Source of the DNA: a bacterium
GTDB lineage: Bacteria; Zhuqueibacterota; Zhuqueibacteria; Zhuqueibacterales; Zhuqueibacteraceae
DNA length: 64,000 bases
Assembly: GCA_044869275.1 (NCBI GenBank)
Contig: JBIOXB010000223.1
Coordinates: 32,001 to 96,000, forward strand
Reading direction: 5' to 3'
A program made the translations under genes and the position numbers. The notes beneath the pieces are model-generated. The model made no database searches and was not told the DNA's origin. It saw nothing but the letters and a program-made list of their open reading frames with translations. Below are positions 17,730 to 52,552 of the stretch, one piece after another (the stretch's first letter is position 1; each line of letters begins with the position of its first letter).

Positions 17730-17798
17730 TTGCAATTGGTCAATTATCTCGCTGCTACTCGAACGGATACCGGTCTGTTGATCAACGTTGGTTCGTCA
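17730..17798 (+). pseudogene. C-terminal fragment of a GxxExxY protein
   Basis: LQLVNYLAATRTDTGLLINVGSS resembles the conserved QLxNYLxAT...GLLINFG end of GxxExxY proteins. Confidence 0.6.
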
Positions 17799-21147: not shown

Positions 21148-21198
21148 TGCGCTTGAGGAAGAATCAAATTTGCTATCAGCGGACATTCTAGGAACTTC

Positions 21199-24100: not shown

Positions 24101-25188
24101 CAGAAGAAGTGGGAAGCGGCGTTTACATCGTCCGGGATTTGCAAAATCGGTATGTCGAGAAGAAGTTGAACCTCGCCGCCATGCCGAGATCTGTGCTGGC
24201 GATGACGGCGGCATGGGAGAGCAAGCCGGAAGCGTATTTGATTTTTGATAACCTGACAAATGCCGAAGCGTTCGATCATTCCGACGCCCACAAACTCGGC
24301 CGCTTCCGCGAGCACGCGATTTCCGCCATTGCCAAAGCGAAAATGCTGCAGGAGCTCCAGGAGAAAAACGCTGAGATCATCAAAACACAAAATCAGCTCA
24401 TCATGCAAGAAAAGCTTGCTTCTCTTGGCGCTTTGACCGCGGGCATCGCGCATGAGATCAGAAATCCCTTGAACTTCGTCAATAATTTTGCCGAGCTTTC
24501 CACAGACTTGACCCAAAGCCTGCAGGAGGATCTCACCCAGCAGGAAGATCGGCTGGATCCCAAAGTGCGTGCGAATATGGAAGAGCTTGTCCAAGATTTG
24601 CAGCAAAATTTGGCAAAGATCAACCAGCACGGCAAGAGAATCGACACCATCGTGGGCGGCATGCTCCTGCACTCCCAGGGAAAAACCGGAGAACGCGTGC
24701 CGACCGAAATAAACGCTTTATTGGATGAATATGTTCATCTCGCTGATCATGGCTTGCGGGCACAGGATTCGAGTTACAGTGTCGCCATAAAGACGGATTA
24801 TGATCGATCTATCGGTGAGATTGAAGTGGTGCCGCTGGACCTCAGTCGCGTTTTTCTCAACATGGTCAAAAATGCCTGCTATGCCGCCAATGAAAAGAAA
24901 AAAACTGCACCTCCACCGTTTATCCCAACGGTTTCTGTTTGCACAAGGAACTTGAATGGTAACGTGGAGATACGTATTCGAGATAATGGCAGTGGCATTC
25001 CCAAGAACATTGTGGACAGAATTTTCAACCCTTTTTTCACGACCAAGCCGACTGGGCAGGGTACGGGGCTGGGTTTGTCGCTCAGTTACGATGTGGTGGT
25101 GAAGGAGCACAAAGGGGAAATAAAAGTTGAGACCGAAGAGGGGCAATATGCGGAATTCATCATCACGTTGCCAATGAGCAAGAAGTAG
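21199..25188 (+). CDS. Sensor histidine kinase (beta-propeller, Y_Y_Y, TM, GAF-like, HisKA, HATPase)
   Basis: Signal peptide, EDxxGxxWxxT repeats, PPWWFRWW plus TM, AHEIRNPL, DNGSG, FFTTK, GTGLGL. Confidence 0.92.
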   Translation: MDRLAMQKLFRTLISIICFLLSSFVFGQELPFTHYTQDNEVVALPSADVRTIYQDRASYIWFVVYSSGLLRYNGHKTDIYTKEDGLPDLTVLQILEDHLGRLWVATNLGLAVSEKPLKEYTGNQRIGFSNKIGATQLIKTSIVANRMAVDAQGRLWIGTREDGILRYHFNGLDSVSADTIGTRIYGEEKNKDIRSITLRRDGSVWVGIGGGNLLVFTAASAAYDVLAEKDGAPRFETDALFENRSGKLWGGCRNGLLWSLVEEAGQRRVEVFSEDLKSRITCITGTQDGKLWVASDGSGIMSITDGNFQVPQSSSPLRRVIFTQRNGLLGDNVAYTIEDREGNIWLAQLGGVSKLRSNYAAFTNFPPTSRLGEKSALLSPSLNAVLPPAEGRPSSGIWVGTSGAGAALIEAEGKIELIQTDRGLRENWVNGLVRDGKGRIWMGTADGINCLSFDSQNPPPPSPEIHSISVLNRKGIIAAYEHHTIYACQKLAFPAADDKIKSVESLWFPGYQHLYCFSENEWFIFKTASGLPATLFHTVAFDEAGRLLVGTRDRGLYRSRFPLTRTRLRQLQAEDVGFPIEKGGGKFGREISTSIFEPVWNQSTGAPSNQIENLLWRDGILWVGTTEGLSVLESEPPRMTTHLTVAQGLKASNVTSMAFSPVSGTLWVGTNGGLAEIDPQTRKVIRTVTKQDGLVDNEVWFYGSVVMAADGAVYFGTAKGLAIYRPQLDKPSSVLPILRLERADFTEDHSGDNEIAFEYAALSFANEKLVRYKTRLVGYDKAWTEEKSEFKIRYTNLPAFLFSKKYTFEVLASNDAGFWTEMPLLHSFTVQPPWWFRWWWLALNAVLWLAIVYGFSRYRLRRLEMRSKVLERTVQERTEEIRQQAEELETLDGIVKVINREVALESVLRSLLEQGLKLFPQAEKASVLLFDPQIGRFKFAVAAGYDPHTLKDVFFTPEELVSRYSQGSEEVGSGVYIVRDLQNRYVEKKLNLAAMPRSVLAMTAAWESKPEAYLIFDNLTNAEAFDHSDAHKLGRFREHAISAIAKAKMLQELQEKNAEIIKTQNQLIMQEKLASLGALTAGIAHEIRNPLNFVNNFAELSTDLTQSLQEDLTQQEDRLDPKVRANMEELVQDLQQNLAKINQHGKRIDTIVGGMLLHSQGKTGERVPTEINALLDEYVHLADHGLRAQDSSYSVAIKTDYDRSIGEIEVVPLDLSRVFLNMVKNACYAANEKKKTAPPPFIPTVSVCTRNLNGNVEIRIRDNGSGIPKNIVDRIFNPFFTTKPTGQGTGLGLSLSYDVVVKEHKGEIKVETEEGQYAEFIITLPMSKK

Positions 25189-25694: not shown

Positions 25695-27026
25695 TCAATG
25701 CCCACCTCCACCGCCGCCCGAACTGTTCAGCAGGGTGAAGACTGCAGTTGCGTCCGAGAGCGTGCCCATCGTTCCAGCCACTGTGATCGGCGCAAACTTC
25801 CCTGCAGCCCCCGCGCTGGTGGTTGAATTGCTCAGCACCAGGGATTCGCCCCAACCGAGCAAGACGAGTTGCAGCGCAGCAGCGTCAGTACCGACTATTC
25901 CAAGCCCCGCCACGTGATTGAATTCAGCGGCGAGAAGCTCCCTTTGGAGTGCGTCAAGATCGCTTTTGACGGGTTTATTCAGAAGATCAAAGGCATCCTG
26001 GAGGCCATCGCCATTTGGCAAGAGAAACGGATCGGAAGGCAGCAAAGCTCGGATCTGAATGACAAAGCCCTGAAGCATCGTTTTGGAATAATCTGCTTTG
26101 CCTTTGCCAGTTAGGGCAATCTGCAATTGCTTTTTCCAGTACGTGGCGGATCTTCCTGTCGTCACCAGCGTTCCGGATTTGAAGTCATTAATGAGCTGGC
26201 TTGCCTTGGGCTCGAATCCAAAATCATTCCCACTGGCGTCTGGACCGACAGAGACGTTGACTTCGGCCGGGGTCGTCGCTGCCAGATAGTTGGTCGAGTT
26301 CGTTTCGAGTGTGGTTTCGTCAACCTTAATCGTGTAAGCTCCGGCTGGGAAGCCCTCGAAGACATAGAATCCACTGTTGGAGGTGACAGCTGTGCCGACA
26401 ACCGAGTCATCAGAATCAAAAAGATTTAGTGTGACATTCTTGATGCCGGCTTCGTTACCGTCAAGGAGCCCACTGGTGTTTGCGTCAGTGAAAACAGTTC
26501 CTGAGATATCAAAGACGCGTGCACAAGCACCCGCAATTTCTCCAACTTGAGTCGTGCCGTTGGATTTTACGGACACCAAAACGATTCCCTCGCGAACCGA
26601 CCCTGGGTAGGTTACGGAAAAAGTGAATGTGTTCTCTTCACCGGATCCAACGCTGGGGTGCCATTCAACGCCCGGGTTGATCACGGGGTCTGGATTGGTG
26701 GTTGATCCGTTGGTTGGGGACAATGCGGACAAGGCTGGAGCACAGGAGGGGAGCTCGAGCCTGAAATGCATATCCACCGCCGGGCCGGATACCGTGTAAG
26801 TGAAAGTCGTTTGGGTACCATCGAAGGTTTGCCCATCATAATGGACATGGAAACCGGCGAGATCGAGGGCTGTCGGCGCAAGTTTTTGCAGCGCTACTGT
26901 TTCATAGTTGCCCGATTGCTGTTTTGGTGCGGATGGACTTGTAACTGGATTTTTCGTTCCGTCACAACCCGAGGCAATCAACCCGGCGACCGTGGCAATG
27001 AATGCGAGGGACAACAGCTTTTTCAT
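25695..27026 (-). CDS. Lipoprotein with SdrD B-like domain
   Basis: RBS AGGAG, lipobox IASGC, ISGTVFTDANTSGLLDGNEAGIKNVTLNL...GFYVF...GAYTI. Confidence 0.85.
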   Translation of the reverse strand: MKKLLSLAFIATVAGLIASGCDGTKNPVTSPSAPKQQSGNYETVALQKLAPTALDLAGFHVHYDGQTFDGTQTTFTYTVSGPAVDMHFRLELPSCAPALSALSPTNGSTTNPDPVINPGVEWHPSVGSGEENTFTFSVTYPGSVREGIVLVSVKSNGTTQVGEIAGACARVFDISGTVFTDANTSGLLDGNEAGIKNVTLNLFDSDDSVVGTAVTSNSGFYVFEGFPAGAYTIKVDETTLETNSTNYLAATTPAEVNVSVGPDASGNDFGFEPKASQLINDFKSGTLVTTGRSATYWKKQLQIALTGKGKADYSKTMLQGFVIQIRALLPSDPFLLPNGDGLQDAFDLLNKPVKSDLDALQRELLAAEFNHVAGLGIVGTDAAALQLVLLGWGESLVLSNSTTSAGAAGKFAPITVAGTMGTLSDATAVFTLLNSSGGGGGGH

Positions 27027-27199
27027 GGATACTCCTTTTAGAGTTGTGAAATTGACGATTACATAAACATATAAAATACAATTATTTTCCCTTGTAAAGC
27101 AAGCAGTACTTTCTCTTGTCGAAACGGAATGACTTCACTCCAACCTGTCCCAAACGGGAAAGGAAGCACTTTTTTGTGCTTTTGTGAGCTTGAATGCAT

Positions 27200-27225
27200 T
27201 ACAAACGACCAGAACAAAAGTTGGT
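27200..27225 (-). promoter_or_regulatory. Putative ECF sigma promoter for the SdrD-B lipoprotein
   Basis: Minus strand ACCAAC-ttttgttctggtcgtt-TGTA (16-nt spacer). Confidence 0.7.
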
Positions 27226-27288
27226 GAGGTTGCATGTTAATTTTTTGCAGTGTAGTTTTTGCTTGTTTTTGAAAACACTCATTTGGCG

Positions 27289-27314
27289 ACCAACTTTTTG
27301 GTTTTTCGACTGTA
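27289..27314 (+). promoter_or_regulatory. Putative ECF sigma autoregulatory promoter
   Basis: ACCAAC-tttttggtttttcgac-TGTA directly before ATG 27318. Confidence 0.72.
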
Positions 27315-27317
27315 GTT

Positions 27318-27872
27318 ATGACAGAACCCAATGACCAGGTATTTGTGCGGGAATGTCTGCACGGCAACCAGGAAGCTTTTGGCGCCCTTATTGGCCGGCA
27401 CCAGCGGGCAGTCTTCAATGTGGCATTGCGTATGACCAAAGATTATCAAGAGGCGCAGGACGTCACCCAGGCCGTCTTCATTAAAGCATATGAGAAGCTG
27501 GGCGAATACGACGCGCAATACAAGTTTTTTAGCTGGATTTATCGCATGGCCGTGAATGAGGCGCTGAATTTCATCAAACGCAAGCAGCGCTTTGAGGGAT
27601 TAAATCCGAACCAAGATTACGCGGCTCTTACCCCAAACCCGGCAGACGATTACGAGGAAAGCGAGATGAGCCGCAATATTCAAAACGCCCTGATGTTGTT
27701 GAAAGTGGACTACCGCGCCATTATCGTCCTCAAGCATTTTCAGGAGCTCTCGTATCATGAGATCGGCTATATTCTCGGTTTACCCGAAAAAACCGTGAAG
27801 TCCCGCTTGTTCACTGCGCGGCAACTATTGAAGCAGGTTCTGCTCAAACAGGGATATGTTGAAAATGATTGA
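27318..27872 (+). CDS. ECF RNA polymerase sigma factor
   Basis: AFGALI..HQ, AQDVTQAVFIKAY, FFSWIYRMAVN, LSYHEIG..LGLPEKTVKSRL. Confidence 0.95.
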   Translation: MTEPNDQVFVRECLHGNQEAFGALIGRHQRAVFNVALRMTKDYQEAQDVTQAVFIKAYEKLGEYDAQYKFFSWIYRMAVNEALNFIKRKQRFEGLNPNQDYAALTPNPADDYEESEMSRNIQNALMLLKVDYRAIIVLKHFQELSYHEIGYILGLPEKTVKSRLFTARQLLKQVLLKQGYVEND

Positions 27873-28647
27873 AGATAAATACCTCGAGCTCATACACGGC
27901 GAGATCGACCGCGCCAACTCGGCCGAGGAAAGTGCGAAGCTCAGAGCCTTTCTTGCTGCCCATGCCGAGGCGCGGCAGTTCTACGAGGAACTGACGGGCA
28001 TGACGGCCATGCTGCAGGAGGTGAAACCCGTCGAGCCGCCGCCGCATCTGCCGCAGGTGATCATGAACCTCTTGCCGATGCGCCCCTCTTCCGCCCGGGA
28101 AAAACGCAACTTCATCACTGCGGCAAGAACCTGGCTTGCGGCCACATTTCGCCCCGGCTACGCTTTCGCTTTTGCCGGGGGCGCGGTTGCCGGAGTGATC
28201 CTGCTCGTTTTGTTTTCGCAGCCGGTACTGAAGGACGAGGTCACAGATTGGTCAAAGCTGTATGGCACAATGGGAGCGCCGCAAACCGGAGAAAATGCGT
28301 CTGGTGAGAAACGCCTGGAAATCAGCCAGCCGGAAGTGACCGGCACCATCAGCTTGAAACCTGCCGGTGAAAGCATGATCATTGAGATCGTGCTCGATTC
28401 GCCGCAATCCCTCGAGCTCGTGATTTCATTTGATGAGAAAGCACTCGGCTTCAAGAGCCTTATCGAATTTGAGAAAGTGGCGCCAATTGAGATGGTCCTG
28501 AATGTGGGTTCGATAAGATTCACACACTCGAGCCGGCAGAGCTATGCCCTCGTTTTTGCGCGGCGCGCCGCCACAACACCGGCCATCGATTTCAAGGTTC
28601 TGCAGAATAGCGCGTTGTTGTATCAAAACACGCTGGAGGATCGCTAG
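27865..28647 (+). CDS. Membrane-bound anti-sigma factor
   Basis: Overlaps the sigma stop; degenerate ZAS-like N-terminus without Cys, single TM (AFAGGAVAGVILLVLF), periplasmic beta domain. Confidence 0.78.
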   Translation: MIEDKYLELIHGEIDRANSAEESAKLRAFLAAHAEARQFYEELTGMTAMLQEVKPVEPPPHLPQVIMNLLPMRPSSAREKRNFITAARTWLAATFRPGYAFAFAGGAVAGVILLVLFSQPVLKDEVTDWSKLYGTMGAPQTGENASGEKRLEISQPEVTGTISLKPAGESMIIEIVLDSPQSLELVISFDEKALGFKSLIEFEKVAPIEMVLNVGSIRFTHSSRQSYALVFARRAATTPAIDFKVLQNSALLYQNTLEDR

Positions 28648-28706
28648 CCCGGTAAATTTATAAAACTAAACCGCCGAGACGCCAGCAAAATAATTTTGCG
28701 AGCTTC

Positions 28707-28732
28707 ACCAACTTTTCAATGTTTGGATTGTA
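28707..28732 (+). promoter_or_regulatory. Putative ECF sigma promoter for the repeat-protein operon
   Basis: ACCAAC-ttttcaatgtttggat-TGTA. Confidence 0.7.
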
Positions 28733-28805
28733 TTTCAATCAGAACTGCAAAGATGAATAAGAACGCATTTATCAATTCTGCATCATGTTTCAACCGGAGG
28801 CCGTC

Positions 28806-29801
28806 ATGAGCAATAGCACCCCATTGGTCAATCGCAAGAATCTGTGGTTAATCGCCGGCGCCCTCATCGTCGTGCTGGCGATTGGTTACTATGCGCTCAG
28901 CATTCGCCCGCCTTCGCTTGAAGATACCGCCGGCACCATCGGTGGCGTGAAGAAAGCCGAGAAGTATCAAAGCGAACAAATGAGCGATAAGGACGTGGTC
29001 TTAACCTCCGCCCAAATTCAAAACCTGCTACAGAACGATCAGATTCAAAATCTCATCACCAGCTCCGAGTTCAAAGCGGTGATGGCAAACGCGGAGCTGC
29101 GCTCGGCGCTGGCGAGTCCGGAGTTGCGTTCGGCAATGGCCAGCCCGGAGCTGAGATCAGCATTGGCAAGTCCGGAACTGCGCTCAGCATTGGCGAGTCC
29201 GGAGTTGCGTTCGGCAATGGCCAGCCCAGAGCTGCGCTCGGCGCTCGCGAGCCCGGAGTTGCGTTCAGCACTGGCCAGCCCAGAGTTGAGGTCGGCTTTA
29301 GCAAGTCCGGAACTGCGCTCAGCATTGGCGAGTCCGGAGTTGCGTTCGGCAATGGCCAGCCCGGAACTGCGCTCGGCGTTGGCTAATGCCGATCTTAAAG
29401 CGGCGCTGGCGAGCCCGGAATTGCAAGCCGCCTTGGCCAGTCCTGAACTCCGCTCCGTGATGGCGAACCCGGAATTGCGTTCGGCATTGGCGAATCCAAA
29501 TTTGCAGGCGGCGATGGCAAACGCGGAATTACGTTCAGCGCTGGCGAGCCCTGAGATGCAAGCGGCCTTGGCAAGTCCCGAGCTGCGTTCCGCTTTGGCG
29601 AGCCCGGAATTGCGGTCAGCGCTGGCGAGCCCTGAAATGCAAGCGGCATTGGCGAGCCCGGAATTGCGCTTGGCGTTGGCCAGTCCGGAATTGAGTGCGG
29701 CCCTGGCGAATCCGGAAATGCAAGCCGCGATGGCGAATGCCGAGCTGCGCTCGGCGCTGGCGAATCCTAATTTTCAAGCGGCGATGTTGCAGGCGCAGTG
29801 A
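28806..29801 (+). CDS. Membrane-anchored or exported nonapeptide (SPELRSALA) tandem-repeat protein
   Basis: RBS GGAGG before ATG 28806; N-terminal TM, GTIGGVKKAEKYQSEQ segment, about 27 9-aa repeats. Confidence 0.85.
   Translation: MSNSTPLVNRKNLWLIAGALIVVLAIGYYALSIRPPSLEDTAGTIGGVKKAEKYQSEQMSDKDVVLTSAQIQNLLQNDQIQNLITSSEFKAVMANAELRSALASPELRSAMASPELRSALASPELRSALASPELRSAMASPELRSALASPELRSALASPELRSALASPELRSALASPELRSAMASPELRSALANADLKAALASPELQAALASPELRSVMANPELRSALANPNLQAAMANAELRSALASPEMQAALASPELRSALASPELRSALASPEMQAALASPELRLALASPELSAALANPEMQAAMANAELRSALANPNFQAAMLQAQ
29061..29789 (+). repeat. 27-bp coding tandem repeat, about 27 units
   Basis: Codon-degenerate units; an exact 62-bp block recurs at 29166 and 29301 (135 bp = 5 units apart). 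Confidence 0.9.
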
Positions 29802-29954
29802 GTGAGGTGGTACCGATTTCCATTGGCGTGCAGCTTCCCTCCCTTGTTTGTCATTCTGGAAGAATCTTTTTCAGCTTGAGTAAATTGCTCAGAGGCGAGA
29901 GAGATTTTCCAGAATGACTTTCTGTTTTTGAGCAAAGGCGTCCCGGAGGAAGAA

Positions 29955-32933
29955 ATGACCCGTACGATCATAATTGATCGTCAATTTTCTTGGTCTAGTA
30001 AAACTCGCGGATTGCTGTTATCCCTGCTTCTGTTCTTCTCTTCGGCCCACGCGCAATTTCAAAGCTTCGAGACTCCCAATCTGCGCCTGATCTATTACAG
30101 CTCAGCGCAAGAATATCTCGTTCCACATATCGCCCGCTGTTTTGAAAATGCCCTGCGTTTCCATCGGGGCATCTTCGATTATTCCCCAGAGGGCAAAATC
30201 ACCGTATTTCTGCAAGATCTCGCGGATTACGGCAACGGCGGGGCGGAGGTGCTGCCGCGCAACTTTGTGTATGTGCTCATGCCCTCGTTTCCTCATGCTT
30301 ACGAAATCGTGCTCGGCAACGAGCGCATGAATTGGATGATGAACCACGAGCTCGCGCACATCGTGTCGATGGACAAAGCGGCAAGCCGTGATGAGTTTTT
30401 CCGCATGCTTTTTGCGGGCAAGGTCTATCCGGAAGCCGCGCATCCCGTTTCGATGCTATATAGTTATCTCACCGCCCCACGCCGTTATGCGCCGCGCTGG
30501 TATCACGAAGGCAGTGCCGTCTTTCTCGAGACCTGGATGGCCGGCGGCTTGGGTCGTGCGCTGTCCTCGTATTATGAAATGGTATTTCGCACCATGGTGC
30601 GTGACCGCAGTTACTTTTACGATCTCGTCGGCTTGGAATCCGAAGGCACGGCGATTGATTTCCAAGTCGGCGCGAATTCATATCTGTACGGCACGCGCTT
30701 CGTCAGTTATGTCGCCGATCAATATGGGCCGGAGAAACTGATGTGTTGGCTCGCGCGCGCTGACAGCAGCAAGAGTTATTATGCCGGCCAATTCAAAAAG
30801 GTATATGGCCTCCCGCTTGATCACGCTTGGCGGCAATGGATTGCTTGGGAGCATCAATTTCAACAAGCCAACCTCGATTCGCTGCAACTTTATCCGATCA
30901 CCTCATATCGCCCAATCACACGCACCGCGCTGGGTTCTGTGTCTCGCGGATATTATGATCCGACGCGGAAAAAGTTGTATGTCGCGTTGAATTACCCTGG
31001 CCAGATTCCGCATCTGGCGGCCATCGACGCCAATACCGGCGTGATTCAGAAAATTTGCAATATTCGCGGCGGCGCTACATATTATGTCGCTGCACTCGCG
31101 TACGACGCTACCGGCCAGAGGCTTTTTTTCACCGAGAAGAACAATGCCTGGCGCGATCTCTGCGCCGTGGACTTGCGCACAGGTGAAAAGCGGATATTGC
31201 TTGAAACCGCGCGGATTGGCGATTTGGCTTTCAATCAAGCCGACAGCTCGCTGTGGGGCATTCGCAGTTCTCTGGGCCTGTCCACTCTCGTGCGTATTCC
31301 TTATCCCTACCAGGAATGGAATCAAGTGTTAACGTTCCCTTACGGCCATGAAGTCTATGATTTATCCCTCGCACCCGATGGCGCTGCGCTGGTAGCCTCA
31401 CGCACAGAAGTGAATGGCAGGCAAAAGCTCATCCAAATGGATACGAAAAAATTGCTGGCGGGTGACAGCTCTTTTGCAGTGATATATGATTTTGAATTCA
31501 GCTCGCCGGAAAGTTTCACGTTCTCTGCGGATGGAAGATATTTATACGGCTCTTCATATTACTCCGGCGTCTCTAATATCTATCGCTATGATTTCGGCCG
31601 CAAAGAAATGGAGATCGTGAGCAACGCCGAAACCGGCTTCTTCCGCCCCGTGCCGGTTTCTGAGGACTCATTGATCGCGATGTGTTACACCGGCAAAGGC
31701 TTCATGCCGGTGATGCTGCCGAATCAAAAGCCAGAATATGTCAACGCCATTCAATTTCTCGGGAATGAGGTTGTCAAAAACCATCCGCAGGTCAAAGAGT
31801 GGAAAATTCCCGCGCCGGCCAGTATCGTGCTCGATTCTCTCGCGACTGCAACGACCAGCTACAGTTCACTGCGCGACACCAAGCTGGCTTCTGCCTATCC
31901 CATCGTCGAAGGCTACAAAGCCTATACGGCCGTTGGCGCACGTGTGAAGTTTTCCAATTCGTTGCGCCTCAGCGATTTGAGCCTCACTGCTTCATATTCG
32001 CCGCTGGGTCAATTGCCTGCGGAAGAAAGAGTGCATCTCGGCTTGGATTTTCATTATTGGCAATTTAATTTCAAGTTGCGCTATAACGGCGGCGATTTCT
32101 ACGATTTGTTCGGCCCGACCAAGAGAAGCCGTAAGGGCTACTCCGCCGACCTGCTCTACAAAAAGTATCTGCAGTTTGACGAATCTTCCACCGGTTCATA
32201 TAGCGTCGATTATTATCTGCAAGCCGCAGGATATGGCGGGCTGGAACGATTGCCGGAGTTTCAGAATATCGCGGCCTCGTTTGACAAGGCGTTCTATTTC
32301 AACGCCGGTTTCAATCACCAAAATCTTGCCCGGCCTTTGGGCGCGGTCGAAGCGGAAAGGGGAATTCGCTTTCAAGTCCATTCTGAAAACAGCATCAGCA
32401 ATGCCAAGTTTTTTCCGCATCTCTACACCGCCTTGGACCATGGCTTCATGTTGCCGATCCCGCATTCGTCGCTCTGGTTGCGCGGCTCTGCGGGTTATGC
32501 CTACGGTGATCGCGACAACTCCTTTGCGAATTTCTATTTCGGCGGCTTTGGCAATAATTGGATCGATCATCTGTCGTACCAGCGTTTTCGCGAATACGAG
32601 AGTTTTCCCGGTGTGGAGCTGAACAGCATCGGCGGGACCAATTTCGGCAAACTGCTGGCGGAATGGACTTTGCCGCCGTTGCGTTTTCGCCGTTTGGGTT
32701 TGCCCACGCTGTATTGCCGTTGGGCGCGCCTCGCGCTTTTTTCTGCCGGTATCGTCACCAACGTTGACAGCGCACCGGTTCGCCGGGAAGTTTTCGATTT
32801 CGGTGGGCAATTGGATTTCAATATCGTTTTGTTTTCGAATTTGAATTCGACGTTTTCGCTGGGTTATGCCGCAGCATTCGAGGCACGGCAGCGGCTGGCA
32901 AAAGAGTTCATGATTTCGCTGAAGATTCTCTGA
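29955..32933 (+). CDS. Outer-membrane protein: HExxH peptidase-like domain, beta-propeller and C-terminal beta-barrel
   Basis: Signal peptide, NHELAH...WYHEG, TolB-like repeats (LSLAPDG, FTFSADG), amphipathic strands at the C-terminus. Confidence 0.78.
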   Translation: MTRTIIIDRQFSWSSKTRGLLLSLLLFFSSAHAQFQSFETPNLRLIYYSSAQEYLVPHIARCFENALRFHRGIFDYSPEGKITVFLQDLADYGNGGAEVLPRNFVYVLMPSFPHAYEIVLGNERMNWMMNHELAHIVSMDKAASRDEFFRMLFAGKVYPEAAHPVSMLYSYLTAPRRYAPRWYHEGSAVFLETWMAGGLGRALSSYYEMVFRTMVRDRSYFYDLVGLESEGTAIDFQVGANSYLYGTRFVSYVADQYGPEKLMCWLARADSSKSYYAGQFKKVYGLPLDHAWRQWIAWEHQFQQANLDSLQLYPITSYRPITRTALGSVSRGYYDPTRKKLYVALNYPGQIPHLAAIDANTGVIQKICNIRGGATYYVAALAYDATGQRLFFTEKNNAWRDLCAVDLRTGEKRILLETARIGDLAFNQADSSLWGIRSSLGLSTLVRIPYPYQEWNQVLTFPYGHEVYDLSLAPDGAALVASRTEVNGRQKLIQMDTKKLLAGDSSFAVIYDFEFSSPESFTFSADGRYLYGSSYYSGVSNIYRYDFGRKEMEIVSNAETGFFRPVPVSEDSLIAMCYTGKGFMPVMLPNQKPEYVNAIQFLGNEVVKNHPQVKEWKIPAPASIVLDSLATATTSYSSLRDTKLASAYPIVEGYKAYTAVGARVKFSNSLRLSDLSLTASYSPLGQLPAEERVHLGLDFHYWQFNFKLRYNGGDFYDLFGPTKRSRKGYSADLLYKKYLQFDESSTGSYSVDYYLQAAGYGGLERLPEFQNIAASFDKAFYFNAGFNHQNLARPLGAVEAERGIRFQVHSENSISNAKFFPHLYTALDHGFMLPIPHSSLWLRGSAGYAYGDRDNSFANFYFGGFGNNWIDHLSYQRFREYESFPGVELNSIGGTNFGKLLAEWTLPPLRFRRLGLPTLYCRWARLALFSAGIVTNVDSAPVRREVFDFGGQLDFNIVLFSNLNSTFSLGYAAAFEARQRLAKEFMISLKIL

Positions 32934-33019: not shown

Positions 33020-36000
33020 ATGAATTCCAGAATTAACTCTCTCGTTCTGGTTACCTTGCTGCTCGTAGGCCATCTTACAATCGTGTTTCATGCTCAGTCG
33101 CAGCCTCGGCAGCAAAGTGGCGCAGAAAAATTGGCCTGGCCACCGCCATCACCTAATCTCGGGAAGGTACAGATTGAACCCCTGCAGATTCAGGGTATCC
33201 AGGCAGTGCAGGATCAGCAGGGATTTATGTGGGTTGTAACCCAAAATGGCCTTTATCGCTATGACGGTTATTCTTATATCCACTACCGGCACGATCCGCT
33301 GGACTCGACCTCCATTTCATATCCCCGGCTGGAATGCCTGTACGTGGATCGCGACGGAATCTTGTGGGTGGGTAGCTATGGCGGCGGCCTCAACCGTTAT
33401 AACCGCGAAACCGACACGTTTACCCGCTTCCGGCACAACGAAAAGGATCCGAAGAGCTTGAGCCACGACGAGGTGACGGCAATTCTGGAAGATCGTCATA
33501 GCATGCTCTGGGTCGGCACGCACGGCGGCCTCAACCGCTTTGATCGCCAGACCGGCGTGTTCACGCGCTATCTGCATGATCCACTTAATCCCGCCAGTTT
33601 AAGCTGCGATCAGGCACGGGTGCTTTATGAAGATCGGCAAGGAACGCTTTGGATCGGCACCGGCGAACCGGATATATCTGCACTCCTGCGCATCCAGGGC
33701 GGCCTTAACCGTTTTGACCCCCAGAGCGAGACTTTTGTCCGGTACCTGCACGATTCGGCTGATCCCACCAGCCTGATCCACGATCAAGTGTTATCGCTCT
33801 GCGAGGATTCTCGGGGTAATTTCTGGGTCGGCACCATGGGCGATGGGTTGCACACCATGGATCGGAAGCGGGGAACCTTCACCCGCTTGCGCTACGATCC
33901 GGCCAATCCTCGGAAATTGAGCGCTCCGTTTTTAGATGGCACTCAGGTGGTACCGGAAGAATGTAATGGCTGGTTGAATTGTGGCGGGGTCACTTTCATT
34001 CATGAAGACCGTTACGGCATGCTCTGGATCGGCCGTCTTGGCGGCGGTATCAATCGCTATGATCCGGAGGCGGGAGCTCTGGTTCATTATGAAGTAGCAA
34101 CCAGTGGCCTGTCGGATAATTTTATTTGGCGGATGTATGAATCACATGACGGCACTTTGTGGATCGGGACCTGGCTTAGAACACATAAGCTGATTTCCTC
34201 AATAACTGCGTTTCCGCTGTATTTGCCGCATCCGGTGAACGCCAATGCAGGCTTGCAGCTCGTTACCAGCTTATTGGAAGACCGTGACGGAATGATTTGG
34301 AGCTCCACCTGGGGTAATGGTGTGGTTCGTATTGACCGCAGCACCGGTGTGGTTACAGAGTACCGGCACGATGCCAACGATCCCAATAGCTTGGGAAGTG
34401 ATATCGTCCCTTGTCTATATGAAGACCGGTCAGGCGCGCTTTGGATTGGGAGTGGAGGAATAGTACTCAGTCGCTACGACCGCGCTACGCAGCGGTTTAC
34501 CCACTTCCGGCATGATCCTGCAAACCCGGCAAGCCGGGGATCAAGCACCATAACGTGCATCCTTGAAGACCGGCATGGCAGGTTGTGGGTCGGCACCGAG
34601 TTTGGAGGACTTGAGCGACGTGACCCGGCCACGGGGCTTTTCAGGCATTTCCAGCATAACCAAAAAGACTCTACCAGCGTGGCACATCAATCTATCGACA
34701 CCATCCATGAAGATCGATCAGGCGTTCTGTGGATAGGAACTGGAAATGGCCTTAGCCGTTTTGATCCGAAAACGGAATCCTTTAAAACATTTCTCTACGG
34801 CAGGCGAATTACTTCCCTTTATGATGATTCAGGTGGTCATTTCTGGATTGGTACCCTGGGAAACGGGCTGCACCGTTTCGACCGCGAGACCGGAGCGAGC
34901 ACCCGCTTTGACCAGGAAAATGGTCTGCCTAGCGAAAACGTGGCAGGCCTGGTGGAAGACAACAACGGCTTTCTCTGGGTCAGCACCTCCGAAGGAGCAT
35001 TCGCCTCCATTGGCGGGCAGTTATCAAGATTTGATCGAAAAGCTGAGACCTTTACGAACTTCAGCAGCCTAGACGGACTGCCGGACATCGGGTTTTTTAG
35101 AGGGGCTTTTCTGAAGACCAGGGATGAGAAGTTGTTTTTCGGAGGAAACGGCGGCTTTACAGCTTTCGACCCGGCAACGATCCGGGAAAACAAGCTCGGA
35201 GCACCGAAGATGGTGCTGACCGGCCTGCGAGTGTTTAATAAAGAAGTCAGGCCCGGCTCGGCGTCACCACTCCGGCAACCACTATATAAGGCCACGGAAA
35301 TCATCCTCTCTTATGACCAAAACGATTTCACGATAGACTACACGGGGCTTTCCTACCACACGCCGGAGAAGAATCGGTATTATTACAAACTGGAGCCACG
35401 CGATGCCGATTGGGTGAATTCCTACGCTCAGCGCAGTGCGCGTTACTCCGGTTTATCGCCGGGGAGTTATGTTTTTCGCGTGCGTGCGGTGGATGACAAG
35501 GGGAATGCGAGCGAGGAAGACGCCTCGATTCGGGTGGTGATTCTGCCGCCTTTGTGGCGCACGATCTGGGCTTACATACTTTATGGCTTGTTGTTCATTG
35601 CGGCAGTGTATGCGATAGACCGGTTTCAACGCCGGCGACTGTTCCGCGAAGAACGCGAGCGCGCCCGGGAAAGGGAGCTACAGCAGGCGCGGGAAATCGA
35701 AAAGGCCTATAACGAATTGCAGAAAACGCAGCAGCAGCTCATTACGCAGGAAAAGCTCGCCTCGCTCGGCCAGCTCACCGCCGGCATCGCGCACGAAATT
35801 AAGAATCCGTTGAACTTCGTCAATAATTTTGCCGTGCTCACCACGGATTTAACCAAAGAATTACGCGAAGTGCTGGAAACGCACACCGGCAAATTGGATG
35901 CAGCAGCACAAGGAGAGGTGCAGGAAGTATTGCAGTTACTGGACCAGAATATCGCCAAGATCAATGAGCACAGCAAGCGCGCGGACAATATTGTGAAAGA

Positions 36001-39968: not shown

Positions 39969-41417
39969 ATGGCAATCAAAATCCTCGTTGTGGATGATGA
40001 ACCTGACTTTCAGGACGTCGTCAACCAGCAGTTCAGGGCCCAAATACGCGCGCAGCAAATGGAATTGGTTTTTGCGGAAAACGGCGCGCGTGCTTTGGAG
40101 AAACTACGGGGTAGTCAGAACTTTGACATGCTGCTCACCGACCTCAACATGCCGGTCATGGACGGCCTCACTTTGCTCACAGAGGTGCTGACCACCTTTC
40201 CGCTGTTGCGTTCCGTCGTGGTTTCGGCTTATGGCGATATGCACAATATCCGGGCCGCGATGAACCGCGGCGCTTTCGATTTCCTGATCAAGCCAATTGA
40301 TCTTGATGATTTGGAGATCACGATTAGGAAAACCTTGCACGCCGCGCAGCAATTGCAGGAAGGCGTGCGCCTGCAGCGGGAAAAAATCGAGCTCGAACGG
40401 CGCAATCAGTTTATTCGCGCAACCTTTGGCCGCTATGTTTCCGACGAAGTGGTGGAAACCCTGCTGGCCTCCCCGGAGGCCTTGAAGCTGGGCGGCGAAA
40501 AGCGCGAGGTCACCGTTGTGCTGTCGGATTTGCGCGGCTTTACCTCCCTGTCGGAACGGCTCATGCCTGAGCAAGTGGTTGCACTCTTGAATCGTTATTT
40601 TGAAGTTATGATCGACATCATCTTGCAATACGGCGGAACGATCAATGAGTTCATCGGTGATGCCATCTTGGTCATGTTTGGCGCGCCGATCGCACGCGCC
40701 GATGACGCGCAAAGGGCCGTGGCCTGCGCCGTTGCCATGCAACTCGCTATGCCCTCCATCAACAAAAAGAATAACGAGGACGGTTTACCCGCAATAGAAA
40801 TGGGTATTGGCATGAGCACCGGCGAGGTCGTGGCGGGAAATATTGGATCGCTCAGACGCACCAAATACGGCATTGTCGGTCGGCATGTCAATCTCGCTTC
40901 CCGAATTGAGTCTTATACGATAGGCAATCAGATTCTGGTTTCAGAAGCGACTTTGGCAGCAGTGGGTTCGATGGTGAGCGTCAGCCGGCAGATCAAGATG
41001 GAAGCAAAAGGGTTTGAAAATCCATCCACGATCTATGAAGTGATGGGGATTGAAGGCCAGTATAACTTCTTTTTATCGGAAAGAAGTGACCAGCTTGTGG
41101 CGCTGCCGCGTCCTCTGACCGTGCACTGCACGATACTCGAAGGCAAACACGTAAGTGGAATGAGCTTTTCGGCGAATTTTACCGCGCTTTCGTTGCGCGG
41201 AGGAGAAGTGCAGGCCGCGCATCCCGTTGCTGTTCTGGCCTCCGTTAAAATGCGGCTCAGCGACCTGGAGGGAAAAGAAATTGCGGCGGACATTTACGGC
41301 AAGGTAATATCCCTGCTCCAAAGTGCTCACGCGGATTTTTATGTTCATTTTACTTCGGTGCCGCCCGAAGTCAAGGAGTTTTTGCATGGCCTTGTAAGCG
41401 CTGTTGGGGCGCATTGA
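39969..41417 (+). CDS. Response regulator fused to class III nucleotide cyclase, with PilZ-like tail
   Basis: REC (VVDDE, TDLNMP, KP); SDLRGFT, EFIGDA, GNIGS, KYGIVG, VNLASRIE. Confidence 0.92.
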   Translation: MAIKILVVDDEPDFQDVVNQQFRAQIRAQQMELVFAENGARALEKLRGSQNFDMLLTDLNMPVMDGLTLLTEVLTTFPLLRSVVVSAYGDMHNIRAAMNRGAFDFLIKPIDLDDLEITIRKTLHAAQQLQEGVRLQREKIELERRNQFIRATFGRYVSDEVVETLLASPEALKLGGEKREVTVVLSDLRGFTSLSERLMPEQVVALLNRYFEVMIDIILQYGGTINEFIGDAILVMFGAPIARADDAQRAVACAVAMQLAMPSINKKNNEDGLPAIEMGIGMSTGEVVAGNIGSLRRTKYGIVGRHVNLASRIESYTIGNQILVSEATLAAVGSMVSVSRQIKMEAKGFENPSTIYEVMGIEGQYNFFLSERSDQLVALPRPLTVHCTILEGKHVSGMSFSANFTALSLRGGEVQAAHPVAVLASVKMRLSDLEGKEIAADIYGKVISLLQSAHADFYVHFTSVPPEVKEFLHGLVSAVGAH

Positions 41418-42490
41418 GACCGTCGATCGAATTACGAGCCGTCGTGTATCGAGAAAGACAAATCTTGAACGCAATCGATTTTAATCCGCCAGCCCGCCTC
41501 GCTTTCAGTCTGTTGCCGGTTCTGATTTTTCTGGTGATTTTAATTTGGCTGGACAGCTTCAAACTGATGCGCTGGCGCGCCGTGCTGCAGGCCATCCTCG
41601 CCGGCGGCCTGGCGGCGCTCTTGAGTCTGGTGCTCAATCGCATAGCTTTCCGGCTTTTCGAACCGGACATGACCCTGTATTCCCGTTATGCGGCGCCGAT
41701 GATTGAAGAATCGTGCAAAGCGCTATACGTGGTTTTCTTGGTCAAAACAAATCGCGTGGGCTTCATGGTCGATAGCGCGATTCACGGCTTCGCGCTGGGC
41801 GCGGGCTTTGCTTGTGTGGAGAATGTTTATTACCTTCGTTCTCTTACCGACGCCAACTTGCTGTTGTGGATCATTCGCGGTTTCGGCACGGCCATCATGC
41901 ACGGCGGCACCACCGCGATTTTTGCCCTGCTTGCACGCAATGCTTTCGCGCAACGCGCAGCAACCCGGCTGCCGTTTTTCCTGCCGGCGCTGGGTGCGGC
42001 GGTTGCCCTGCATTCTTTTTTCAATCATTTTTTTCTGCCGCCACTGCTCTCGACGCTGACGCTGTTGATTGCGCTGCCGGTGATCATGATTTTGGTCTTT
42101 CAGCACAGCGAGAATGCCACGCGCCATTGGCTGGAGGTGGGTTTTGGCACGGATCAGGAATTGCTGGAACTGCTCACCACGGAAAAAATTTCCACCAGCA
42201 AAATCGGCGCTTATTTGCAGTCGCTCAGAAAGATTTTTCCGGGAGAAATCGTCGCCGATATGTTGTGCCTGTTGCGTCTGCGTCTGGAATTATCCATTAA
42301 AGCCAAAGGCCTGATGCTCATGAGCGAAGCCGGTTTCGTGCCCGCACTGGATCCGGAAATCGGCAAAGCATTTGATGAGCTTGCGTATCTCGAAAAGAGT
42401 ATCGGCAAGACCGGCATGATGGCGCTTAAACCGTTCGTCAGCGCGGAAAGCCGGGATTTGTGGCAATTGCAAATGTTGGGGAGAGAATGA
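41414..42490 (+). CDS. prsW: PrsW-family intramembrane glutamic protease
   Basis: IEESCK (EExxK), GFACVEN, MHG, LHSFFN; multiple TMs; exact start uncertain. Confidence 0.87.
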   Translation: MRPSIELRAVVYRERQILNAIDFNPPARLAFSLLPVLIFLVILIWLDSFKLMRWRAVLQAILAGGLAALLSLVLNRIAFRLFEPDMTLYSRYAAPMIEESCKALYVVFLVKTNRVGFMVDSAIHGFALGAGFACVENVYYLRSLTDANLLLWIIRGFGTAIMHGGTTAIFALLARNAFAQRAATRLPFFLPALGAAVALHSFFNHFFLPPLLSTLTLLIALPVIMILVFQHSENATRHWLEVGFGTDQELLELLTTEKISTSKIGAYLQSLRKIFPGEIVADMLCLLRLRLELSIKAKGLMLMSEAGFVPALDPEIGKAFDELAYLEKSIGKTGMMALKPFVSAESRDLWQLQMLGRE

Positions 42491-42545: not shown

Positions 42546-42669
42546 CAGAACAATATTCTGAAAATTTCTTCGCCAACGGATGAGAAGCGACCAACGGATT
42601 CAGAATAATCCGTTGGCCGTTTTTAATCCGTTGGAGAGTTCTTTTGTTTAAAGCTGCTCCGCAAGGAGC
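42546..42669. repeat. Dispersed CCAACGGAT/ATCCGTTGG palindromic element, copy A1
   Basis: About 125-bp direct match to 53547-53669. Confidence 0.8.
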
Positions 42670-42727
42670 TTCGGCTTCCATCCCGACCCTTCGGGATGGA
42701 AATTCGATGAACATTCCTTTAAACATT

Positions 42728-43144
42728 ATGGATCAACTCTCGCTCACCCTCAAAAATGACCTGGTTGAAATAGAGCGCTTGAGCCAAAGCCTCGAAGCCT
42801 TTGGCCGGAGCCAGCAATTGCCGGAGGAGCTTTTGTACGCAGTCAATCTCGCGCTTGATGAAATTCTGACCAATGTGATTTCCTACGGCTATGCTGATGA
42901 GGCCGAGCATGAAATCACCGTTGGCCTTGGCATACAAGCCGGCGAGCTGATTGCCGAAGTTGCTGATGATGCCCTACCCTTCAATCCTTTGGCAGCGCCA
43001 CCTGCGGACGTCAATAGCCCGTTGGAGGAAAGGGCGGTGGGAGGCTTGGGGATTCACCTCGCGCGCACTTTGATGGATACGATGGAATACCGGCGCGAGG
43101 GTGACAAAAACATATTGATATTGAAGAAAAGAATTGCTTCATAG
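42728..43144 (+). CDS. RsbW-like anti-sigma / Ser kinase (HATPase_c_2)
   Basis: LALDEILTNVISY, DDALPFNP, GGLGIHL, N.L. Confidence 0.9.
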   Translation: MDQLSLTLKNDLVEIERLSQSLEAFGRSQQLPEELLYAVNLALDEILTNVISYGYADEAEHEITVGLGIQAGELIAEVADDALPFNPLAAPPADVNSPLEERAVGGLGIHLARTLMDTMEYRREGDKNILILKKRIAS

Positions 43145-43249
43145 GCATTTGGCATTCCGGGATTCCTCCCGCAGCGGCGGCACGGGAATGACTTCGAGCT
43201 GCGTGGCAAGGTTTCGAACTCAATGTGGTATTTGCTGGACGGAGAAAAA

Positions 43250-43588
43250 ATGGAGATTACACAAACCCAACAAGCCCATGCGCTGGTGTTCGCCCTGAGC
43301 GGAAGATTAGACGCGAAAACCTCGGAAGGCTTCGAGCAACAACTGCTCGCTGCAATTGCAGCAGGCAACCAGAACGTGCTCCTGGATTTCTCCAAGCTGG
43401 ATTATATCAGCAGCGCCGGTCTGCGTGTTCTGCTGCTCGCCGCCAGAAAACTGCAGGAAAGCAGTGGCAAGATCGCGCTGTGCGGCCTCAAGCCCACACT
43501 CAAAACGGTCTTCGACATTGCGGGTTTTTCTAACATTTTTTCGATCTTTGCTTCGCAGGAAGAAGCGATTGCAGGCTGGTCGAAATAA
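43250..43588 (+). CDS. STAS anti-anti-sigma factor (RsbV-like)
   Basis: GRLDA, LDYISSAGLRVLL, VFDIAGF. Confidence 0.93.
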   Translation: MEITQTQQAHALVFALSGRLDAKTSEGFEQQLLAAIAAGNQNVLLDFSKLDYISSAGLRVLLLAARKLQESSGKIALCGLKPTLKTVFDIAGFSNIFSIFASQEEAIAGWSK

Positions 43589-43632
43589 GCGCGCAACTGG
43601 TCGTCTGGACAATTGATAAGGAATTGCAGCAC

Positions 43633-44793
43633 ATGCCCACCAAAATCCTCGTGGTTGATGACGAACCTGATCTGAAAATGTTGATTAGTCAGAAGTTTCG
43701 AAAAAAGGTGCGAGACCACGAGCTCATTTTCACTTTTGCCGAAAGCGGTGTGGCGGCGCTGCACCGTTTGCAGGAGGAGCGTGATGTCGATCTCGTCATG
43801 ACCGACATCAATATGCCGGAAATGGACGGTTTGACGCTGTTGGCAAAACTCAATGAGCAATACCCACAAATCAAATCCTTGATCGTTTCCGCCTACGGCG
43901 ATATGTCGAACATTCGTACGGCACTCAACCGTGGCGCATTCGATTTCATCACCAAACCCATCGATTTTCAAGACCTCGAAATCACCCTCGACAAGACCAT
44001 TCAAGCGGCGCGCGCGCAAAGGCAATCGGAACAAGATCGCGATCAACTGGTCGCGCTGCAGCGCGAGCTGGACGTGGCACGGCGCATCCAGAGTGCCATT
44101 GTGCCGCGCACGTTTCCGCCCTTTCCGGAAAGAAAGGAATTTGAAATTCATGCGGCGATGATCCCGGCACGCGAGGTGGGCGGGGACTTTTATGATTTCT
44201 TTCTCATCGACAACGAACGCCTGGGCTTCGTCATTGGCGATGTGTCAGACAAGGGCGTGCCGGCGGCGCTGTTCATGGCGGTGAGCAAAACCTTGCTCAA
44301 AGCCACAGCACTGACCGGAGTGCCGCTGGAGGAGTGCCTGCAACAGGTGAACAGCATGCTTTGTTGGGACAATGCTTCGGCGATGTTCGTCACGGTTTTT
44401 TACGGCATCTTGCACCTGCGCACGGGCGAAGTGAGTTACAGCAATGGCGGTCATAACCCGCCCTTTATCTTGCGCGCGAACCGGCAGATCGAAACCACGG
44501 AAACCTCCGGCAGTTTGGTGTTGGGGGCGCTGCCAAATTCGAGCTACCAGGCAAAAAGCACAAAGCTGCTGCCGGGCGAAGGGCTCTTTCTCTATACCGA
44601 CGGCGTGACGGAAGCAACCGATGCCAACTACAATGCTTTTGCCGAAAAACGCTTGCAAGAAAGTCTGCAACGCCTGCACGGTGCGGCGTTGCACGACATG
44701 GTCGACCGTGTTGTTGAAGAGGTCAAAGCGTTCTCACAAGGCGCGCCCCAAGCGGATGATTTGACGATTCTGGCCTTGCGCTATCTGGCGTGA
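43633..44793 (+). CDS. Response regulator fused to PP2C/SpoIIE phosphatase (RsbU/RsbP-like)
   Basis: REC plus EVGGDFYD, GDVSDKG, NGGH, YTDG, DDLT. Confidence 0.93.
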   Translation: MPTKILVVDDEPDLKMLISQKFRKKVRDHELIFTFAESGVAALHRLQEERDVDLVMTDINMPEMDGLTLLAKLNEQYPQIKSLIVSAYGDMSNIRTALNRGAFDFITKPIDFQDLEITLDKTIQAARAQRQSEQDRDQLVALQRELDVARRIQSAIVPRTFPPFPERKEFEIHAAMIPAREVGGDFYDFFLIDNERLGFVIGDVSDKGVPAALFMAVSKTLLKATALTGVPLEECLQQVNSMLCWDNASAMFVTVFYGILHLRTGEVSYSNGGHNPPFILRANRQIETTETSGSLVLGALPNSSYQAKSTKLLPGEGLFLYTDGVTEATDANYNAFAEKRLQESLQRLHGAALHDMVDRVVEEVKAFSQGAPQADDLTILALRYLA

Positions 44794-52057: not shown

Positions 52058-52092
52058 GGCTGGATGCCGGATCCTGGATGCTGGATCCTGGG
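52058..52092 (+). repeat. Heptamer tandem repeat (CTGGATC / CTGGATG)
   Basis: ggctggatgccggatcctggatgctggatcctggg immediately after the caspase stop. Confidence 0.65.
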
Positions 52093-52479: not shown

Positions 52480-52552
52480 CCAACGGATAGATCAAGACCA
52501 ACGGATGAAGGGACGAAAATGTTTTGTCCGTTGGCCTTAATCTATCCGTTGA
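52480..52552. repeat. CCAACGGAT/ATCCGTTG palindromic element, copy B1
   Basis: ccaacggatagatcaagaccaacggat...tccgttggccttaatctatccgttg; similar to 58348-58420. Confidence 0.75.

Follow-up and report, generated by a model that had tools for sequence, protein, structure and literature searches.

A conserved bacterial gene module pairing tagged repeat proteins with peptidase-propeller-barrel proteins: a candidate export system linked to an ECF sigma factor and PrsW

The locus and the question

What does a sigma factor of the extracytoplasmic function (ECF) type serve when its gene is followed by those of an anti-sigma factor, a membrane-anchored protein built mostly of nine-residue repeats, and a large outer-membrane protein that joins a peptidase, a propeller and a barrel? 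The question is raised by a window of 64,000 nucleotides (the whole stretch of DNA analysed, part of contig C223, JBIOXB010000223.1) from a genome of the Zhuqueibacterota (6.67 Mb, 94% complete). A first-pass annotation of the window had picked out these genes together with a distant one for the intramembrane protease PrsW, and open reading frames (ORFs) for all five are present where it placed them. Each gene of the module is single-copy in the genome by tblastn and profile search, with the exception of the sigma factor, which has 16 further ECF relatives. The best named homolog of the barrel protein comes from candidate division KSB1. The system is real, conserved and undescribed, and appears to be a variant of barrel-dependent two-partner export joined to ECF-linked proteolysis.

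Conserved pairing of a tagged cargo with a barrel protein

The repeat protein, hereafter the cargo, is encoded at 28806..29801 on the plus strand, with a probable start at 28806 after a GGAGG and a frame of 338 residues. Its leader carries a signal anchor (28848-28904), a GTIG motif nine residues past the transmembrane (TM) helix (28932-28943), which is a candidate PrsW site, and the sequence VKKAEKYQSEQ (28947-28979), a candidate recognition signal for the barrel protein that is called here the tag. The array that follows (29007-29789, residues 75-335) consists of 29 nine-residue units with the consensus [SN]PELR[SA]A[LM]A. The earlier description of the protein as mostly SPELRSALA repeats stands as to the 29-unit array, in which every unit position has a clear majority residue, but exact SPELRSALA occurs in 9/29 units alone. 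The nine synonymous units differ from each other by 6.25 nt on average, which argues that the array is maintained at the protein level.

Two elements of the leader recur. First, the cargo and the anti-sigma factor have in common the pattern [DEN]-[LV]-x-G-T-[IML]-G shortly after the TM helix, and among the genome's ORFs of at least 150 aa they are the only two that combine a TM helix with this motif. Second, a tag of the form V-x-x-A-x-[RK]-Y-x-x-x-Q lies downstream of GT[IM]G in 37 of 44 leaders; in window-type leaders its columns, directly past GTIG, read A27, R19/K17, Y31, R23 and Q35 of 43. A profile of the leader matches 1785 clusters (50% identity) at E<=0.001. The body is far more variable: across lineages the units have periods of 9, 10, 11, 12 or 13 residues and differing sequences while an amphipathic pattern is kept, the span after the motif ranges from 149 to 712 aa (4.8-fold; median 297 aa, n=42), and 89 of the 150 top representatives show weak periodicity only. 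At six loci, and in 16 of the same 150 representatives, an in-frame fusion joins an anti-sigma domain to the cargo. All six fused loci retain a ribosome-binding site and a Met at the usual cargo start, and such fused forms are probably one gene with two products.

Genomic neighbourhoods were counted at 69 homolog loci (labelled L), whose record titles name KSB1, Calditrichota, Bacteroidota, Ignavibacteria, Acidobacteriota, Aminicenantes, Krumholzibacteriota, Eisenbacteria, Neomarinimicrobiota and others. A cargo-leader gene lies directly upstream of the barrel gene at 43 of the 43 loci with 1.5 kb of room, within 450 bp at 42 of them and at 464 bp in the last (L011). PrsW is encoded at 66 of the 69 loci, and two of the three misses have at most 2 bp of downstream sequence. 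The 30 loci with 5 kb upstream encode a STAS protein (30), RsbW (26), an ECF sigma factor (21), an anti-sigma domain (19) and SpoIIE (19). The system had been proposed to be ECF-controlled; the ECF pair is indeed present, but it is not strictly core, with the sigma factor at 21 of 30 loci against STAS at all 30. Tabulating whether barrel homologs travel with repeat-protein, ECF and PrsW genes did not refute the proposed system and revealed one conserved module.

Presence and absence were scored in 133 genomes of the phylum (labelled G). The cargo occurs in 40, a close barrel homolog in 39 (all within the 40), the anti-sigma factor in 42 and the long form of PrsW described below in 46; two genomes (G013 and G098) have two cargos and two barrels each. 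Long PrsW is found in 43 of the 44 genomes with cargo or anti-sigma factor. By presence and absence, PrsW goes with the GT[IM]G motif and not with the barrel, and the tag goes with the barrel protein. In two genomes (G125 and G032) contig-internal loci encode the sigma factor, a motif-bearing anti-sigma factor, PrsW and STAS, and neither cargo nor barrel is matched; G060 and G028 resemble them, with loci at contig ends. Four others have cargo, barrel, PrsW and STAS and lack a full-length cognate anti-sigma factor (weak N-terminal matches; control 2e-75). Two further exceptions (G089 and G026) are contig fragments. Directly after PrsW, G060 also encodes a TM-GTIG protein with a PI4K/HipA-like kinase body (L098:8570-9487), in which the motif is reused for a different cargo.

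The peptidase-propeller-barrel protein

The partner of the cargo is an outer-membrane protein of 992 aa with a signal peptide (29955..32933, plus strand). The first-pass annotation had read it as a protein of about 990 aa with a gluzincin-like motif, a propeller and a barrel, and this architecture was borne out. The plus strand encodes in turn a gluzincin-type peptidase (about 30051-30890, HELAH at 30345), a TolB-like propeller (about 30891-31742) and a 16-strand Omp85-type barrel (about 31881-32930). H131, E132, H135 and E185, the gluzincin/Peptidase_MA set with HELAH at residue 131, are invariant in 115 of 115 aligned homologs. The Pfam family Peptidase_MA_2 matches 13 of 52 members, with the window protein below its cut-off. 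An AlphaFold2 model built on 115 sequences (pLDDT 92, pTM 0.90) comprises a helical peptidase domain, the propeller and, at the C-terminus, 16 strands of which the 11th and 12th are separated by a long loop (by secondary-structure count), as in Omp85 barrels. The propeller's best structural match is TolB (Z 23.5, rmsd 2.8, 244 aligned), and in fold searches with the model propeller matches occupied both match lists.

For the barrel, Pfam Omp85_2 matches 46 of 61 members at E<=0.1, the window protein being below the cut-off, and the Atlas places it at 0.98 to a cluster bearing PF01103 in 38% of members. No sequence match to solved structures was found for the whole protein, the barrel alone or the peptidase alone. 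The lid-lock described for Omp85 proteins (PMC11358297) is missing: RG[FYW] of loop 6 and FxDxG of strand 13 are each present in 1 of 61 members. The C-terminal residue is Leu. Pfam detects no POTRA domains, and the model leaves no room for them between the propeller (to residue 596) and the barrel (from 643). The genome has 17 other PF01103 matches. One of them, encoded outside the window on the same contig (C223:114579-117572), is a canonical peptidase-MA/PD40/Omp85 paralog with a TFRG loop, which the window-clade profile misses. Loss of the lid-lock, the 17 other matches and the failure of the clade profile to detect the canonical paralog argue that the window protein is a divergent, dedicated paralog and not BamA. 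Its branch is a large one, with 4753 clusters among 8000 candidates scored. One relative (G131) has a second window-type barrel gene (L099:7343-13802; 47%), with no cargo upstream and divergently oriented from a canonical-type paralog.

A sister clade with signal-peptide cargo and no regulators nearby

Comparison with a sister clade of barrels is the strongest evidence on mechanism. Five genomes of the phylum have a weaker barrel match, about 30% identical; in two of them the upstream repeat protein bears an ordinary signal peptide, one (G051) has no such protein, and two loci lie at contig ends. A metagenome scan added 80 loci, 3 of the window type (L250, L252 and L253) and 77 of the sister type. 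The upstream cargo ORF is complete at 34 sister loci (28 distinct N-termini), and all 34 encode a short hydrophobic signal and no GTIG, the signal peptides being judged by hydropathy and a pattern of A/S/G followed by Q. In the same 34 of 34 cargos V-E-[KEQ]-A-x-R-[YF]-R stands 1-5 residues past the apparent cleavage site. The remaining sister cargo ORFs mostly begin inside or after the repeats. One extra case was found later (L175); at L194 and L249 there is upstream room and no cargo was found. Genes for PrsW, an ECF sigma factor, an anti-sigma factor or the partner switch were found within 5 kb flanks at 0 of 77 sister loci, 52 of which had at least 1.5 kb downstream.

These observations suggest that a barrel protein and a tagged cargo form the basic unit, and that the regulated branch probably has an anchor, GTIG and PrsW in place of the cleavable signal peptide. 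Because the sister tag follows an ordinary signal peptide and PrsW is encoded at none of the 77 loci, PrsW is probably a regulated replacement for signal peptidase.

The sister clade also forms a two-gene system of its own (L174-L251; L100:10501-11532; L103:2281-2931), in which a signal peptide, tag and 16-residue repeats are encoded upstream of a divergent peptidase-propeller-barrel gene. The units are mostly 16-mers such as SNSQLEELGSRYGWTR, and this cargo may be a multi-copy peptide precursor. One sister cargo (L242:4170-4451) is just 93 aa long, has a single unit and ends in a short hydrophobic C-terminal peptide. Family matches of the sister cargos were discarded as repeat-driven only.

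Sigma factor, promoters, PrsW and partner switch

The ECF sigma factor (27318..27872, plus strand) passes the Pfam cut-offs for Sigma70_r2 and r4_2 and that of TIGR02937; its best NCBIfam match is SigW, below the equivalog cut-off (125.7 bits vs 209). The anti-sigma factor (27865..28647, plus strand) has a probable start at 27865 that overlaps the sigma stop by 8 nt. It comprises a Cys-less N-terminal domain, one TM helix (28162-28218) and a periplasmic domain, and matches an NCBIfam anti-sigma family below cut-off (E 3.8e-7). Its GTMG motif, a candidate PrsW site, lies 15 residues past the TM helix (28264-28275, plus strand). In the phylum survey G[TAS][ILMV] occurs 5-28 aa past the TM helix in 28 of 29 anti-sigma factors (after one short ORF was set aside; 5 of the 29 also served as rows in the profile that found them), against a mean of 2.2 and a maximum of 7 in shuffles; in other windows of anti-sigma domains the count is 18 of 118. 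The genome also encodes the site-2 protease RseP (TIGR00054 over cut-off).

The first-pass annotation held that three transcription units share one promoter motif. The pattern CCAACTTT-N13-TGTA has exactly 3 matches in the 6.67 Mb genome, and all three sit at the proposed units: upstream of the lipoprotein gene described below (27198..27224, minus strand), of the sigma gene (27290..27316, plus strand) and of the repeat gene, where it probably also serves the barrel gene (28708..28734, plus strand). An AAC-N16-TGTA shape is typical of ECF promoters, and the motif suggests three transcription units. Across the 133 genomes a similar strict pattern is found in 30 of the 44 with cargo or anti-sigma factor vs 7 of the 89 without; within the family the strict pattern has 32 matches vs 1 for a reversed control. 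It finds only 1-6 sites per family genome. Scans for sigma-70 promoters and terminators gave chance-level results, and a fourth promoter-like site at C223:121009 was left out of the count for want of a nearby ORF. Unlinked sites in relatives precede a lipoprotein ortholog (G135), a secreted vWA-DUF11 protein (G129, G135 and G136), a propeller sensor (G131) and a nuclease-family protein (G135), and four other sites have no clear gene. No chaperone or Bam genes are among the targets inspected, and the regulon output looks small and surface-related, unlike a general stress response.

At the sigma gene the ATG follows TGTA by just 3 nt, a spacing seen at 26 of 38 distinct sites. With the usual geometry of ECF promoters the transcript would begin inside the sigma gene, and this motif is possibly a negative-feedback promoter for the anti-sigma factor only. 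At one locus (L003:7016-7400) the ECF gene has decayed and the promoter and anti-sigma gene are kept. Five loci (L013, L014, L034, L055 and L252) encode a different ECF type, about 26% identical, and their cargo bears a cytoplasmic extension of 20-30 aa that contains an internal ribosome-binding site and may be a minimal anti-sigma domain.

PrsW (41414..42490, plus strand; Pfam E 1.3e-21, over cut-off) was correctly identified in the first pass. The PrsW motifs listed in PMC12943098 (EExxK, FxxxE, H and HxxxD/N) are present as EExxK, FxxxEN, H and HxxxN, invariant in 64 of 64 aligned sequences. The protein scores far below the NCBIfam PrsW equivalog cut-off (26.3 bits vs 225) and carries at its C-terminus a conserved helical domain of about 100 aa; judged by its sequence it is a separate, long-form subfamily. 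Seven helices and their charge pattern, read by the positive-inside rule, predict an active site toward the periplasm and a cytoplasmic extra domain. In fold searches APH-1 was matched by the membrane part (Z 14.3, rmsd 4.0, 191 aligned), and the C-terminal domain gave no clear match.

In the window PrsW and the switch genes lie 8.5 kb off, past a sensor kinase, an acyl-CoA synthetase, a broken kinase and a cyclase. The earlier inclusion of so distant a gene in the system was sound, as PrsW directly follows the barrel gene in 57 of the 67 loci with downstream room. A complete partner-switching set follows PrsW on the plus strand: an RsbW-type serine kinase (42644..43144; HATPase_c_2, E 3.6e-27), a STAS antagonist with the motif DYISSAG (43223..43588; STAS, E 7e-22) and a receiver-SpoIIE phosphatase (43624..44793; SpoIIE, E 1e-50). 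The Pfam-assigned receiver-adenylate/guanylate cyclase whose gene overlaps the PrsW start (39969..41417, plus strand) has a homolog in 1 of 69 loci and is a local addition.

Proposed mechanism and its rivals

The reading that best joins these observations, held tentatively and at somewhat less than an even chance, is that the repeat protein is freed by PrsW and taken by the barrel protein via its tag, that the intact body is exported, and that a cut in the anti-sigma factor re-induces the genes. The signal anchor would insert the cargo in the inner membrane, where it would be stored. A periplasmic cut by PrsW, at GTIG or right beside it, is suggested by motif and co-occurrence; it would expose the N-terminal tag and do the job of the sister clade's signal peptidase. 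The peptidase and propeller would then bind the tag, as the cargo/barrel pairing suggests, and probably trim it, and the repeat body would pass through the barrel to the surface or medium. The anti-sigma factor has the same motif, and therefore active PrsW would also remove its periplasmic domain; RseP would complete the cascade, and the freed sigma factor would re-induce cargo, barrel and a few surface proteins. The anti-sigma factor thus probably reports PrsW activity. The SpoIIE/RsbW/STAS switch, whose linkage is observed, may time PrsW, possibly via the extra cytoplasmic domain; that target is a guess. The first-pass proposal, in which the dedicated barrel handles a substrate and PrsW and the anti-sigma factor provide feedback, is now the best reading on the basis of shared motif, tag and pairing.

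A broader claim can be made a shade more cautiously still: a new secretion route in which peptidase-propeller-Omp85 barrels export repeat proteins by an N-terminal V-x-x-A-x-R-Y tag. It would have a constitutive branch that uses signal peptidase and one controlled by PrsW and a phospho-switch, in which a cargo-mimic anti-sigma factor, or a longer in-frame cargo isoform, couples export to transcription. There is a fair chance that the system amounts to an independent route of secretion.

Several points weigh against export of an intact, PrsW-released cargo. The intact peptidase could equally destroy or chop the cargo. POTRA domains are absent, and no source of energy is known that would drive export. 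The PrsW of B. subtilis cleaves RsiW between Ala168 and Ser169 (PMC8767453), in a sequence unlike GT[IM]G. The T/A variants of the motif do not co-vary between cargo and anti-sigma factor within loci (13 TT, 3 AT, 2 TS, 1 TA, 1 AA), and the tag pattern was formulated after the sequences were seen. Three genomes do not fit: G061 (97% complete, 490 contigs) has long PrsW and no motif-bearing partner was found in it, G101 has the partners without PrsW, and G133, of the same genus as the window, has PrsW, cargo remnants only and no barrel. The absences were scored in genomes assembled from metagenomes, and genomes of relatives are not independent of each other. The complex predicted for PrsW and the cargo leader (score 0.00; controls not folded) counts neither for nor against. 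The module is decaying in G133, where one cargo survives as a pseudogene behind the promoter and another, also degenerate, lies next to RsbW and PrsW (L090/L117).

Among the rivals, one shares the release step and treats the array as a multi-copy precursor that the outer-membrane peptidase chops into short peptides, signals or antimicrobials, with the barrel as exit or anchor; it is unlikely, though it deserves to be taken seriously. The peptidase residues are invariant, and sister units resemble a spacer (..QLEELG) followed by a core (SRYGWTR, TRYGFVR or GRFGWTK), of which the L242 cargo has one. One sister cargo passes the class I lanthipeptide leader cut-off, probably through repeat inflation, and Y_Y_Y-propeller sensor kinases flank the window locus. 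By contrast, window-type units such as SPELRSALA, SAEFQKLMA and NLDAKSVDALR vary in period and sequence and keep an amphipathic helical pattern. Given such variable units and the weak periodicity in 89 of 150 representatives, a fold is a better fit than separate peptides. Conserved modifying enzymes are absent from the labelled loci.

Less probable again is a repeat protein that stays anchored as a periplasm-spanning sensor or ruler, with GTIG as an assembly motif or a site for the outer-membrane peptidase, and signals the envelope state to the sigma factor. In the fused forms the repeats are indeed the periplasmic domain of an anti-sigma factor, the median of 297 aa after the motif is enough for a rod, and a weak Pfam GerD match of the repeats (E 7.7e-6, below cut-off) suggests a helical rope such as that described in PMC11841064. 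The ruler, one of the first-pass options, is nevertheless disfavoured because cargo length varies 4.8-fold and sister cargo, whose barrels have no regulators nearby, is unanchored; in addition, motif-bearing anti-sigma factors persist alongside PrsW in genomes without the barrel.

The least likely reading is an envelope stress module like that of SigW, with the repeat protein as an STI1/DP-like holdase that delivers misfolded proteins to a quality-control protease of the outer membrane: the SigW match noted above, a summed Pfam STI1-HOP_DP score over cut-off and Atlas neighbours with that family in 10-25% of members favour it, but the STI1-HOP_DP match is repeat-driven because no single DP stretch passes alone, the few promoter sites per genome lead to no chaperones or Bam genes, and the tag and sister clade are left unexplained. 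A match of the repeats to coagulation factor V was rejected as a nine-residue low-complexity coincidence.

Relation to known systems

The literature search found no description of the system, with subscription papers and bioRxiv supplements outside its reach, in agreement with the first-pass statement that no characterised system of this composition was known. Within its main text and the available part of its supplement, the ECF reclassification paper (PMC7826278) contains no PrsW/STAS group like the present one.

The closest regulatory counterpart is the SigW-RsiW-PrsW-RasP system of B. subtilis, which is alike in its ECF sigma factor, adjacent single-pass anti-sigma factor, PrsW with four catalytic motifs, RseP and AAC-N16-TGTA sigma promoter. 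The host here, however, is diderm, PrsW has about 100 extra conserved residues, and the site proposed for the cut is a conserved motif, located 9-20 aa from the membrane and common to a second protein. PrsW also persists here without the anti-sigma factor, and is linked to a barrel, a cargo and a partner switch.

On the export side, two-partner secretion (TpsA/TpsB) likewise sets a cargo gene with a conserved N-terminal signal and a repetitive body beside that of a dedicated barrel of the Omp85 superfamily. The body of a two-partner secretion cargo is a beta-helix. The present system differs in that it has no POTRA domains, no TPS domain (no Pfam or NCBIfam match in the cargo), short amphipathic repeats, a barrel joined to a peptidase and a propeller, and release by PrsW in one branch. 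In architecture the barrel protein resembles the 'WD40-like' Omp85 proteins (Heinz & Lithgow 2014, PMC4104836), which have the same aminopeptidase-like domain, TolB-like propeller and barrel and no POTRA domain. Table S3 of that paper, in its accessible rows, includes 17 with the same best aminopeptidase match (1z5h). The window clade differs from them in having lost RG[FY] and FxDxG and in ending in Leu, and the canonical-type paralog encoded on the same contig escapes the clade's profile. The available text catalogues WD40-like Omp85 proteins and describes no tested function or partner.

The Bordetella btr system (BtrS, BtrA and BtrU/W/V; PMC7498569) follows a similar logic: an ECF sigma factor, an anti-sigma factor handled by the export pathway with positive feedback, and a SpoIIE/kinase/STAS switch needed for secretion. 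It controls a type III injectosome, and its anti-sigma factor is secreted, not proteolysed; the likeness is in regulatory logic only and implies no homology of the export parts. Finally, for myxosortases (bioRxiv 10.1101/2023.06.07.544157) and PrsW-fused polymorphic toxins (PMC3482391), a protease of the CPBP/PrsW superfamily has been proposed to cut a TM-adjacent signature and release cargo. Their signals are C-terminal with an invariant Cys, or PrsW is fused to the cargo, whereas here the signal is N-terminal, Cys-free, used in trans and shared with an anti-sigma factor.

One large branch of the peptidase/WD40 Omp85 proteins, which were catalogued in 2014 without substrate or function, thereby gains a cognate cargo and a short candidate recognition tag. 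The evidence also suggests a role for PrsW as an alternative to signal peptidase that is regulated, specific for a motif and active on two substrates. The system is found in many diderm groups with few cultures, and in sediments, soils and sludge its product may therefore be of consequence for surfaces or communication. The cassette is small enough to be transferred to a laboratory host.

Neighbouring genes

The first-pass annotation had also drawn a lipoprotein with an SdrD-B/prealbumin-like domain (25695..27026, minus strand; Pfam SdrD_B, E 8.4e-14) into the system. It stands as a regulon member, the unlinked G135 ortholog retaining the promoter motif, but not as a core part, with homologs at 0 of 69 module loci and in 3 of 19 family genomes. 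A lipobox Cys and a Gly-rich C-terminal tail are conserved across its 43-cluster family. The family's end, a conserved helix followed by an SSGGGG tail (window 25695-25760), may act as a sorting signal at the C-terminus. The lipoprotein has a GTMG too, but other members of its family do not conserve it, and it was dismissed as chance.

Four Reg_prop/Y_Y_Y histidine kinases surround the module (17788-25188, 33020-36628 and 44790-48392), and similar sensors flank it in close relatives; the remnant of a split kinase lies at 38577-39631. Further downstream, genes for a caspase-like C14 protein, a GH19 chitinase-family protein and an nSTAND1-WD40 protein stand in a row (48737-58328), possibly a defence-type cluster.

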